Source: Wenzhouxiangellaceae bacterium
Lineage (GTDB): Bacteria; Pseudomonadota; Gammaproteobacteria; Xanthomonadales; Wenzhouxiangellaceae
Length of the DNA stretch: 64,000 bases
Assembly: GCA_032251355.1 (NCBI GenBank)
Contig: JAVVDV010000002.1
Coordinates: 66,253-130,252 of the forward strand
Direction: 5' to 3'
Shown piece by piece: positions 57,751 through 63,000 of the stretch. The translations under genes and the position numbers were made by a program. The notes under the pieces were generated by a model that did no database searches, was not told where the DNA came from, and worked only from the letters and a program-made list of their open reading frames with translations. Position 1 is the stretch's first letter; each line of letters starts with the position of its first letter.

Positions 57751-60033
57751 TCAGTGCGGGTCGCCGAAGTCGTCCTTGAAGATCATGTCCACCGGCACGC
57801 GCTTGAGCACGACGATGGCGTTGTCCTCGCTGGCCACGACGTAGATGTGCTTGTCATCGCCGCTGGCCACGACCGCGGTCGGACCGGCCATTTCGAGAAT
57901 CTCGCCCTGGTCGTCGAACAGCGTCTGGCGCACGACCAGTGCACCGGGCACCCGGTTCTGCTGGTCGGCCTCGCCAATGCGCTCGAACAGCGTCAGGCTG
58001 TGGTCGGCCAGCCCGGTCGCGAACACCTCGGTGCCGTCGGGCGAGATCGCCAGACCCTGCGCACCGCCCAGGCCCGGACGTTCGGGACTGGACTGGCGCC
58101 ACACTTCGCGCTGACCCAGCGTGCCGTCAGCATTGCGGTCGAAGCGCAGCACGGCGTTTTCCTGCTCGGCGGTGACGTAGACATGACGATCGTCGCCGCT
58201 GACAACGATGTTGAACGCGCCGTCCAGGCCGATGACGCCGGCCAGGCCGTTTTCATACGCGCTGACGAAGCGCAGCCTGCCGGGTATGCCATCATCACCG
58301 GCGGGCAGGCGTTCGAAGACCTGCAGCGCATCGCCGAAGCGTGACGCGACATAGAGCTGGCGACCGTCGCCGGACAGCGCCAGCCCGGCCGGGCGGTCCA
58401 TGCCGCGCACCGCAAGCTCGTCGCCTTCGGCAACCGGGCGACCGTCAAAGGCGGCCTGAATGAACTCCAGCGCCCCGGTGACAGCATCGCGGCGGAATAC
58501 CGCAACCGCTCGCTCTCCAGCGGCGGCGGCATACAGGTTTGTGCCATCAGCGCTGACGATCAGCCGGCGCACACCGGTCAATCCTGTGATTCCGGGAGTG
58601 GCCTGGGCCCGATTCTCGACAAAGCTCAGGCGGCCGGTAGCGGCGTTGCGCGCCAGCACCGCGATAGCGTCGTCTTCGCGCGCGGCGACGTACACATGCC
58701 GTCCATCCGGGCTGACGGTGATATCGATGACGCCGTCGAGCAAGGCGTCGCCGAATCCGGCAGTCGAGACATCATAGCGATCAAGCGCCGTGAGCCGTCC
58801 CGAGCGCGCATCGCGCCGAAAGGCCACCACCGCATCCAGCGCCTGGCTGGTGACATAAGCATGCTCACCGTCTGGCGACAGCGCCAGCGCGGTCGGGTTG
58901 GCCATGCCAATGACATCCTGCTGATTGACCACGTCCTGCTCGTGCCGGGCTGCCGGCCGGAAGCGCGGATCGTTGATCACACCCAGCGCGCTTGGCTGAT
59001 CGAGCACCAGGTTGAATGCGCCGCTGAAGCGCAGCTGGAAGCTCTTTGGCGCCGAGGTGCCAGGGGAGTTGAGGATCGTGACCGGGATCTCGGTCTCGAG
59101 TTCGCCGGCCGGGATGGTGACGCTGCCGCTGGTGGCGACGAAGTCGACACCCGGCTGGGCGTTCAGCGCCACCGTCGTGTAGTCGAAGCGCGCCTCGAAG
59201 TCGGAGCGCTTACTGAGTTTCGGCCGGAACACCGCGTCCAGCGAAGTGCCCGCGGGCGGTTCCAGCACCGAAACATCGGCCACGCGCAGGCCCGGCACGT
59301 CGTCGTCGTCGATGATGGTCCCGAACGCCGCAGGTCGTGCCGGCACCGCGCCCTGGACCTTGAGCTCGACCTTGAAACGACGGGTGGGCTGGACCTGCGT
59401 GTTGCCGCAGACCAGCACCGTGATGCTGCCCTGCATCTGGCCGGCCGGAATGATCAGTTCGTTCTGGTCGGCGAGGTAGTCGATGCCCGCAGTGCAGATT
59501 GCGCCGCCCACGGCGCTGTCGTCGACGGTGTTCCAGAACACCCGCACGTCGTCTTCGGCAGTCGTCACCATGGTCACGTTGAAGGTCATCGGCGTAGTGC
59601 CTGCATTGCCCTCGAATACTTCGGCATTGCTTATGTTCAGGCTCGGGCCGGTACCCAGGTTCTGCGGGTCAAGGTCCAGCCGGACCGCCGTGCCTTCGGC
59701 ACCGACGACCGCCTCGGCAGCCGGCACGTCGCCGATCAGGATGCGCACCGGGTCGCCCGGGCGCGCCCGGCCCTCAATGCGCGGATCGACGGTATCCATC
59801 GGCACCCGCAGTGCGTACTGATCACCCAGCCGTTCATCGAAGCCGAGTTCGTAGCTGGCCAGCACCTCGCCGGTAGCGAGCATGCGCACCTCGACGCGCT
59901 GGCCGGGAGCCGCCGGCGCACCGAACAGCGTAACGTTGCCGTAGAACACATGATCCGGCGCCTCGATCCGGGCTTGCGCGGCGGTGGTGAGTGCTACACC
60001 GGCCAGTAACAGCAATCCAGTCTTGATATTCAT
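57751..60033 (-). CDS. Secreted protein: N-terminal Ig-like domain, two Calx-beta-like modules and a 7-bladed lactonase-type beta-propeller
   Basis: ATG 60033 lies 2 nt after the upstream stop, or GTG 60039 overlaps it. Signal peptide MNIKTGLLLLAGVALTTAAQA. Calx-beta-like segments are FEGNAGTTPMTFNVTM..WNTVDDSA..IDY..IIPAGQMQGSITV and LEPPAGTS..FDYTTV..GVDFVATSGSVTIPAGELETEIPVTI. Seven repeats of the type SPDGEHAYVTSQALDAVVAFRRD, SPDGRHVYVAAREDDAIAVLARN ... SGDDKHIYVVASEDNAIVVLKRV. Confidence 0.8.
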   Translation of the reverse strand: MNIKTGLLLLAGVALTTAAQARIEAPDHVFYGNVTLFGAPAAPGQRVEVRMLATGEVLASYELGFDERLGDQYALRVPMDTVDPRIEGRARPGDPVRILIGDVPAAEAVVGAEGTAVRLDLDPQNLGTGPSLNISNAEVFEGNAGTTPMTFNVTMVTTAEDDVRVFWNTVDDSAVGGAICTAGIDYLADQNELIIPAGQMQGSITVLVCGNTQVQPTRRFKVELKVQGAVPARPAAFGTIIDDDDVPGLRVADVSVLEPPAGTSLDAVFRPKLSKRSDFEARFDYTTVALNAQPGVDFVATSGSVTIPAGELETEIPVTILNSPGTSAPKSFQLRFSGAFNLVLDQPSALGVINDPRFRPAARHEQDVVNQQDVIGMANPTALALSPDGEHAYVTSQALDAVVAFRRDARSGRLTALDRYDVSTAGFGDALLDGVIDITVSPDGRHVYVAAREDDAIAVLARNAATGRLSFVENRAQATPGITGLTGVRRLIVSADGTNLYAAAAGERAVAVFRRDAVTGALEFIQAAFDGRPVAEGDELAVRGMDRPAGLALSGDGRQLYVASRFGDALQVFERLPAGDDGIPGRLRFVSAYENGLAGVIGLDGAFNIVVSGDDRHVYVTAEQENAVLRFDRNADGTLGQREVWRQSSPERPGLGGAQGLAISPDGTEVFATGLADHSLTLFERIGEADQQNRVPGALVVRQTLFDDQGEILEMAGPTAVVASGDDKHIYVVASEDNAIVVLKRVPVDMIFKDDFGDPH

Positions 60034-63000: not shown

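Follow-up and report, generated by a model that had tools for sequence, protein, structure and literature searches.

A propeller protein encoded behind a predicted TcA-like giant in Wenzhouxiangellaceae may be an exchangeable, Ndom-anchored accessory subunit

What role could a secreted beta-propeller protein have directly behind the gene of a giant protein? The question is raised by a 64,000-nucleotide (nt) stretch of contig JAVVDV010000002.1 of a Wenzhouxiangellaceae bacterium (assembly GCA_032251355.1, positions 66,253 to 130,252), referred to here in its whole length as the window. At its right edge the minus strand carries the 3′ part of a giant gene (60036..64000), followed by a gene for an exported protein of 760 amino acids (aa) with a signal peptide, an N-terminal domain here named Ndom, two Calx-beta domains and a seven-bladed propeller (57751..60033). 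An initial annotation had likened the giant to TcA of the Tc toxins and had placed the propeller protein in the position of the partner TcB, possibly as a docking element in a two-component module. The reading we favour, to which we give about an even chance, is that a TcA-like giant machine has the 760-aa product as an exported accessory subunit, namely a swappable binding head anchored by Ndom.

The evidence for this reading lies in what follows the giant gene in other genomes. A pattern scan over one genome per GTDB species recovered at least 596 giant loci, of which the best 80 were kept, and frequencies drawn from these are biased towards the query's relatives. From the alignment of the 760-aa family, separate profiles were made of Ndom (aa 22-128), of Calx-beta and of the propeller; six-frame open reading frames (ORFs) of 88 loci and the window (89 sequences) were scanned with these hidden Markov models (HMMs), and the Ndom profile was then iterated. 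Among the 73 species-representative loci that contain the 3′ end of the giant and at least 600 nt downstream, an Ndom ORF followed the giant in 59, in 58 cases starting no more than 400 nt from the giant's stop. Calx-beta domains and a propeller stood behind Ndom in 33 of the 73 loci only, all of them from Gammaproteobacteria (Lysobacterales/Xanthomonadales, Wenzhouxiangellaceae, Marinicella, Sedimenticola) or Acidobacteriota, save for a few metagenome-assembled genomes (MAGs) labelled 'Pseudomonadota' or 'uncultured bacterium'. The loci without an Ndom ORF behind the giant encoded a BC protein of the type described below (three), Cadherin_3/RTX/Calx-beta/LamG proteins (five) or something else (six).

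In these HMM scans Ndom, about 105 aa long and recognizable by the motif IPEPDxxxYG...YxLRVPxD..PR...ARxGD...RLD, was the sole part of the downstream protein conserved across phyla. It is followed by bacterial TSP3 repeats and an unassigned domain in Verrucomicrobiota, by Big_7, Big_12 and Kre9 in a Nitrospirota MAG, and by a beta-helix, Big_12, CHB_HEX_C and seven Glucodextran_B domains in a Desulfuromonadaceae MAG. When 1.84 billion cluster representatives were searched exhaustively with a profile, 428 Ndom proteins were returned at E≤1e-3, and in almost all of the best 150 of them (proteins of 70-4692 aa) Ndom sits directly behind the leader. Partner domains in 44 sampled Ndom proteins came from 75 Pfam families in all, among them Calx-beta (19 proteins), Lactonase propeller (13), FG-GAP, MopE and TSP3 (five each), WD40 (four) and PKD (three). 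Ndom itself had no Pfam match and no PDB sequence match at E≤10, and is a previously undescribed domain. As judged from these sequence comparisons, it is Ndom and not the propeller that ties the 760-aa protein to the giant's operon.

The co-occurrence of the two gene families, proposed earlier as a check, was found in many genomes. Besides the 59 of 73 loci above, it was seen in four unrelated contexts around homologues at 43-45% identity, from Wenzhouxiangella sp. AB-CW3, a Lysobacteraceae isolate and two metagenomic contigs; in all four a ~580-600-aa gene is followed by a ~2800-aa gene and, after 1-2 nt, by the homologue, and the downstream flanks are all different. Neither the ~2800-aa nor the ~580-600-aa genes of these four loci contained a Pfam domain. 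Gaps of 1-2 nt between stop and start are found in most Gammaproteobacteria and likewise in one MAG each of Geobacteraceae and Desulfuromonadaceae and in an unclassified metagenome-assembled chromosome; most Thermoanaerobaculia loci have 7 nt, and Verrucomicrobiota mostly have 13-57 nt.

The idea of a two-component module had to be given up, as at least four genes make up the conserved unit: a parvulin-type peptidyl-prolyl isomerase (PPIase), a ~600-aa protein, the giant and an Ndom protein with its variable part. In the clade of the window the operon opens in addition with a very large protein of DUF11 domains and YVTN propeller, and the order is this DUF11/YVTN giant, PPIase, ~600-aa protein, ~2800-aa giant and 760-aa gene. 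The DUF11/YVTN protein is found at this place in Gammaproteobacteria and Acidobacteriota and has 4362 aa in AB-CW3; DUF11 has been described as the CLIPPER isopeptide domain (PMC12617251). Hardly any locus or phylum has the giant without the ~600-aa protein, which has no match in Pfam or the PDB and no similarity to the TcA protein SepA. Its invariant NPFxHRYHPDHDNLD motif may bind metal. It is an exported protein whose gene precedes that of the giant (e.g., L017:3425-5260, L006:6836-8689), and the SurA/PrsA-like PPIase gene lies upstream of it (e.g., L017:2418-3425) or downstream of the Ndom gene. The PPIase was present in 43 loci of several phyla, which suggests periplasmic folding assistance to the giant. 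All products of the orthologous operons examined have Sec-type leaders, and in AB-CW3 a signal peptide is listed for all five operon genes (PMC7691419 Table S1). The leaders, invariant cysteine pairs and a PPIase of periplasmic type would together place the products of the operon outside the cytoplasm.

The resemblance of the giant to TcA, the other half of the question, was borne out by structure prediction. Orthologous loci encode full giants of ~2800 aa, and the window holds only the last ~1320 codons, the ORF being open at the window edge at 64000. No Pfam or NCBIfam match was found for the giant, and no PDB match by phmmer or by a profile from a 54-sequence alignment. The last 1200 aa were modelled with AlphaFold2 (AF2) as a monomer (predicted local distance difference test, pLDDT, 76.7). 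The model consists of a helical domain, a small beta region, a huge helical hairpin and an alpha/beta C-terminal domain. The best 14 Foldseek matches in the PDB were all TcA chains (E 1.7e-8 to 1.9e-6, probability 1.0), comprising TcdA1 in prepore and pore form, XptA1, XptA2, TcdA4 and YenTcA; the 15th match had an E of 0.15, and it was only from this rank on that generic coiled-coil proteins appeared. The predicted long hairpin, channel-like in appearance, is encoded at 61023..61823 on the minus strand (DSSP helices 606-695, 90 residues, and 714-872, 159 residues), with a short tip loop at 61500-61553 bracketed by two cysteines. The C-terminal alpha/beta domain of the model, the last ~320 aa (60039..61001, minus strand), is inferred from its position to be equivalent to the TcB-binding domain of TcA.

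As a check by sequence, the profile of the giant was compared by hhalign with SepA, encoded by sepA on pADAP of Serratia entomophila. The single weak match (E 7.8e-4, probability 25%) superposed the giant's hairpin on SepA residues 1914-2077, just ahead of the start of the best TcA_TcB_BD match at 2073, and aligned the tip motif 'E-x-LP-K-VV-GLA' of the giant with 'ADMLPNIYGLAVGG' of SepA (LPxxxGLA). Because of the Foldseek matches, the alignment at the hairpin tip and the BC genes found downstream in four loci, a TcA-like identity is the best reading of the giant from the model, though the protein stands outside the TcA family by sequence criteria. In its predicted helical shell, long two-helix hairpin, conserved LPxxxGLA tip loop and C-terminal alpha/beta domain it would resemble TcdA1, XptA1/2, SepA and YenA1/A2, and it differs from them in its Sec leaders, its ~600-aa companion, the PPIase of the 43 loci and the lack of TcA Pfam matches. 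Classical TcA forms a pentameric prepore that injects its channel into a target membrane, and its two-helix channel hairpin measures ~200-250 Å. The components of YenTc are synthesised in the cytoplasm and depend for their release on a phage-like lysis cassette (PMC10847046), and on pADAP holin and lysozyme genes lie immediately upstream of sepA.

The giant family extends over Verrucomicrobiota, Acidobacteriota, Lysobacterales (Xanthomonadales), Desulfobacterota and other phyla. The C-terminal 1300 aa retain 43-50% identity in Verrucomicrobiota, Desulfobacterota, Spirochaetota and Omnitrophota, and the N-terminal parts are variable, with LamG, RCC1, FG-GAP, malectin and SBBP domains. The two cysteines of the tip loop (about 61548-61550 and 61485-61487; Cys697 and Cys718 in the numbering of the last 1200 aa) occur in Gammaproteobacteria and close relatives, and other clades are without them; the pair may form a disulfide clamp, consistent with an extracytoplasmic location. 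In Alkalispirochaeta odontotermitis (L007) the giant is split into a 572-aa product corresponding to the middle part (8098-9816) and a 1350-aa product corresponding to the conserved C-terminal half (10001-14053), a situation that recalls the split TcA genes yenA1/yenA2. The Ndom protein of the same locus carries a beta-helix and a dockerin.

A rival possibility is that the seven-bladed propeller binds the giant's C-terminal domain as a TcB-like dock or plug and caps or gates the channel without a cocoon. The position of the gene directly 3′ of a TcA-like gene and the presence of a beta-propeller are indeed shared with TcB. In addition, half of the sampled Ndom proteins carry a propeller (Lactonase in 13, FG-GAP in five and WD40 in four of 44). 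The same slot is occupied in four loci, which are L006 and three of the 80 GTDB loci, by a BC protein, in which Pfam identifies fused SpvB, FG-GAP, TcdB_toxin_midN and RHS domains of the TcB/TcC cocoon type (L006:17734-24612, L084:14211-21158, L072:4996-11646, L065:4115-5878), and these four loci lack an Ndom ORF behind the giant. Unlike classical Tc B/C subunits, the BC proteins in Verrucomicrobial loci have N-terminal leaders resembling signal peptides.

The lack of an Ndom HMM match in the four BC loci had suggested that Ndom and BC proteins are mutually exclusive alternatives. This was overturned by L006, the sole BC locus with upstream sequence, where a 279-aa protein encoded upstream of the ~600-aa gene has a divergent Ndom at its N-terminus (hhalign probability 92%, E 8e-7) followed by TSP3; since L006 encodes both, Ndom and BC proteins can coexist. 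The giant's C-terminal domain might also have co-varied with the class of partner downstream. This was ruled out, as BC-type and Ndom-type loci share 53% identity in this domain and likewise 53% in the shell, with a ratio of about 1.0 for every class pair. Because of the coexistence in L006 and the equal conservation of the C-terminal domain, the 760-aa protein looks like an additional accessory and not a BC substitute. Most of the partners in Verrucomicrobiota, Nitrospirota and Desulfuromonadaceae are moreover Ndom proteins without a propeller, and the propeller here is of the lactonase/YVTN type with seven blades and not of the FG-GAP type of TcB, in a protein that lacks SpvB, TcdB_toxin_mid and an RHS/YD shell. 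With only Ndom conserved across phyla and the propeller confined to Gammaproteobacteria and Acidobacteriota, we consider a TcB-like docking role unlikely. The four BC loci make the place behind the giant a 'partner' slot in a loose sense, and this much stands of the position first assigned to the propeller protein. No BC-type gene was found in the window or in the Gammaproteobacterial loci, and no systematic search was made elsewhere in those genomes. AB-CW3 expresses a 3990-aa YD/RHS protein that has a signal peptide (abcw3|00911) and is followed by orphan RHS cassettes; its gene lies ~1.5 Mb away from the operon (PMC7691419 Table S1), and the protein might serve in trans as a cocoon partner.

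For the favoured reading of an Ndom-anchored accessory subunit, the closest known arrangement is that of Chi2 in YenTc of Yersinia entomophaga. The Chi2 gene flanks tcA-like genes and the protein sits at the periphery of the TcA pentamer, where its N-terminal domain (residues 1-91) is predicted to take part in the main interface; the chitinase domains of YenTc lie exposed, and a role in surface recognition has been suggested for them (PMC6486591). Like Chi2 and Chi1, the 760-aa protein is a separate polypeptide encoded beside a tcA-like gene, with an N-terminal domain of comparable size (~105 aa against ~90 aa) and a swappable head, but the head is made of two Calx-beta domains and a propeller instead of a GH18 chitinase, and a Sec signal peptide is present. 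By analogy, Ndom would attach the 760-aa protein to the giant or to the ~600-aa partner, and the Calx-beta domains and propeller would form a clade-specific ligand- or surface-binding head on the complex, probably stabilised by Ca2+, in an arrangement that mirrors Chi2 on YenTc. Other lineages would swap in TSP3, Ig-like, beta-helix, FG-GAP, WD40 or PKD heads, and translational coupling would tie synthesis of the subunit to that of the giant. The adhesin-type nature of the alternative heads and the variable N-termini of the giants fit a machine that exchanges specificity modules and keeps its channel core.

Several points weigh against this reading, in addition to the sampling bias mentioned above. 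The TcA likeness of the giant depends on an AF2 model of the monomer, of moderate confidence, and on a weak hhalign match. VRP1, ABC_toxin_N, Neuraminidase and TcA_TcB_BD, the four TcA Pfam families, which all matched the SepA control, were not found in the window fragment of the giant at E≤0.01 or in two full-length orthologues at E≤1. The TM-scores against TcA were low (0.13-0.18 normalised to the query), as is expected because an elongated monomer model was compared with protomers of a pentamer. The relation of Ndom to the Chi2 N-terminal domain is one of analogy and not shown homology, Ndom having no sequence match in the PDB, and Ndom could have a binding partner other than the giant. With three kinds of propeller recurring in 22 of the 44 sampled Ndom proteins, a role specific to the propeller keeps some plausibility. 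Finally, low amounts of the giant (abcw3|02769) and of the 4362-aa protein (abcw3|02761) were present in the AB-CW3 proteome under all three growth conditions, while the propeller protein (abcw3|02772), the PPIase and the 588-aa protein went undetected (PMC7691419 Table S1). The operon genes are not discussed in the main text of that paper (PMC7691419).

The same constancy of Ndom and variability of what follows could be explained if the 760-aa protein were a passenger, with Ndom as a targeting tag and the Calx-beta domains and propeller as a substrate of the TcA-like channel. A constant N-terminal tag joined to variable C-terminal parts is typical of secretion substrates, and all components appear to be Sec-exported. 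However, the variable parts are large, stable, beta-rich modules of adhesin type that reach several thousand residues, whereas Tc channels pass unfolded cargo of ~30 kDa out of a cocoon, and Pfam found no toxin or enzyme effector domain in the 760-aa protein. We regard a cargo role as improbable. To an equally small extent we credit a role as an assembly factor that acts alongside the PPIase and the ~600-aa protein, is needed for folding or export of the giant for a limited time only and is absent from the mature machine. Both the proteome of AB-CW3, with the propeller protein undetected and the giant and the 4362-aa protein detected, and the co-encoded chaperone-type PPIase would agree with such a role, but one would expect such a factor to be conserved from end to end, and here conservation is limited to ~105 aa, the remainder being freely exchanged among adhesin-type modules.

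The domain structure first read from the 760-aa sequence (signal peptide, Ig-like N-domain, two Calx-beta modules and seven lactonase-type blades) was recovered in an AF2 model built from an alignment of 52 family members (mean pLDDT 92), with the N-domain as a beta-sandwich, and Pfam recognized the Calx-beta modules and the propeller. A Sec-type signal peptide occupies aa 1-21 (MNIKTGLLLLAGVALTTAAQA|R; 59971..60033, minus strand, as are all features of this gene), with a leader helix at residues 4-15 of low pLDDT, and a signal peptide is also listed for the AB-CW3 orthologue (PMC7691419 Table S1). It is followed by Ndom (aa 22-128, 59650..59970); the model has beta-sandwiches at residues 28-118, 131-241 and 248-354. 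The second and third of these correspond to Calx-beta domain 1 (aa ~129-245, 59299..59649) and Calx-beta domain 2 (aa ~246-360, 58954..59298). Pfam placed Calx-beta (PF03160) on two stretches of the protein (37.5 bits against a cut-off of 27), and the profile of the family alignment matched the CBD structures of NCX1 and CALX in the PDB (E 1e-21 to 1e-18), in the second domain at residues 281-342. In domain 1, C180 and C209 are invariant and DDD at 242-244 is nearly invariant in the family alignment.

The propeller (aa ~361-748, 57790..58953) was predicted as 28 strands forming seven four-stranded blades at residues 362-745, and it belongs to the Pfam Lactonase family PF10282 (99.1 bits against a cut-off of 21.7); NCBIfam gave sub-threshold propeller matches and one YVTN repeat match barely over the cut-off. 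The best Foldseek matches of the model were the 6-phosphogluconolactonase YbhE (1ri6, 6nau) and PpgL (6igb), followed by hydrazine synthase beta, Lp49, an archaeal YVTN S-layer propeller and the NCX1 Calx-beta domains (identity range 12-19% overall), and a profile search of PDB sequences with the family agreed with these. Invariant residues of the propeller belong mostly to the Y...R / SPDG structural repeat of each blade and not to a unique polar cluster, which may point to a scaffold rather than an enzyme. The protein ends in a conserved yet disordered tail, IFKDDFGDPH (57754..57789; pLDDT <50 at residues 750-760), with the family consensus IFxDGFE and nearly invariant F752 and F756; longer Acidobacterial versions of the protein extend beyond this tail. 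As first noted, the protein is free of RHS and SpvB domains and of any obvious toxin domain: Pfam found no RHS, SpvB, FG-GAP, TcdB_toxin_mid or toxin/enzyme effector match. An independent periplasmic lactonase that merely adjoins the giant gene, as the strong Lactonase match and the nearest structures (6-phosphogluconolactonases and the periplasmic gluconolactonase PpgL) might imply, is very improbable, given that the coupling with the giant is kept across genomes whose other neighbours differ, that the propeller lies in the giant's operon and is fused to Ndom and two Calx-beta domains, that its likeness to YbhE/Pgl and PpgL in sequence and fold comes with an identity of only 15-19%, that its invariant residues are mostly structural, and that related YVTN propellers occur in S-layer and antigen proteins. 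The name 'beta-propeller fold lactonase family protein' is probably misleading for the 760-aa gene.

The junction of the two genes also read as first described. The minus-strand ORF at 57751..60039 encodes 762 aa from a GTG or 760 aa from the ATG at 60033, with its stop codon at 57751-57753. The junction itself (60031..60045) reads ...GGGACGGTGATCATG on the minus strand and contains GGGA resembling a Shine-Dalgarno sequence (60042-60045), the TGA of the giant (60036-60038), the alternative GTG start (60037-60039), which overlaps this stop as GTGA, and the ATG (60031-60033) 2 nt past the TGA. The ATG at 60033 is the likely start because an identical 760-aa protein starting with this ATG has been deposited from a Wenzhouxiangellaceae MAG ('beta-propeller fold lactonase family protein [Wenzhouxiangellaceae bacterium]', 100% identity) and because the layout of stop, 1-2 nt and ATG after a GGGG/GGGA motif recurs in orthologous loci. 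The 760-aa ORF has 361 homologues, mostly full-length (~750-780 aa; 41-64% identity among the 120 listed), and it is, by this conservation, a real gene and therefore no chance product of GC-rich DNA. Long antisense or overlapping ORFs of up to 437 aa, e.g., 58696..60009(+) and 57754-58344(+), were dismissed as unsupported artefacts of GC content. A search for sigma-70-like promoters and intrinsic terminators, covering the junction and the inside of the two genes, returned none, and their absence between the giant and the 760-aa gene fits co-transcription.

Beyond the 3′ end of the operon, a 349-aa ORF (56655-57704, plus strand) is convergent with the propeller gene and ends 46 nt from its stop, and no intrinsic terminator was detected between the two. 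Further downstream lies a 385-aa ORF (55582-56739, minus strand). The AB-CW3 locus has a gene of the Pfam APH (phosphotransferase enzyme) family on the opposite strand, ~8.5 kb downstream.

Most work on Tc toxins concerns pathogens of insects and humans, and the toxins are usually identified by their Pfam domains. The giant family, with its predicted TcA-like fold in at least 596 species-level genomes, escapes those domain models. Literature searches for a TcA-like family in Verrucomicrobia or Acidobacteria and for Foldseek-based surveys of Tc toxins returned nothing relevant, and no paper describing the Ndom/TcA-like giant system was found in the library searched; a paper on bacterial teneurins concerns a different system. 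The partners of the giant are also unseen in classical Tc loci, with a parvulin PPIase, a ~600-aa protein and heads tagged by Ndom, and Sec leaders take the place of lysis. With less confidence than we have in the subunit reading, we propose that the operon may be a widespread Sec-exported relative of Tc toxins, with a channel-forming giant, periplasmic maturation by the PPIase and the ~600-aa partner, interchangeable Ndom heads and, in some lineages, loading from a BC cocoon that is itself Sec-exported. It would then be a new contact or injection machinery of environmental and predatory bacteria (Wenzhouxiangella, Marinicella, Thermoanaerobaculia, Verrucomicrobiota) and not of insect pathogens.

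The interest of the locus lies mainly in the system of the giant rather than in the propeller protein alone. If these readings are true, the distribution of Tc-type translocators and their routes of assembly would be wider than known from the classical loci, and Ndom would be a new domain that marks their swappable binding subunits. Wenzhouxiangella sp. AB-CW3, in whose proteome the giant is detected, and Marinicella would then offer cultured organisms for functional tests of such a machine, which may possibly serve in predation on bacteria.

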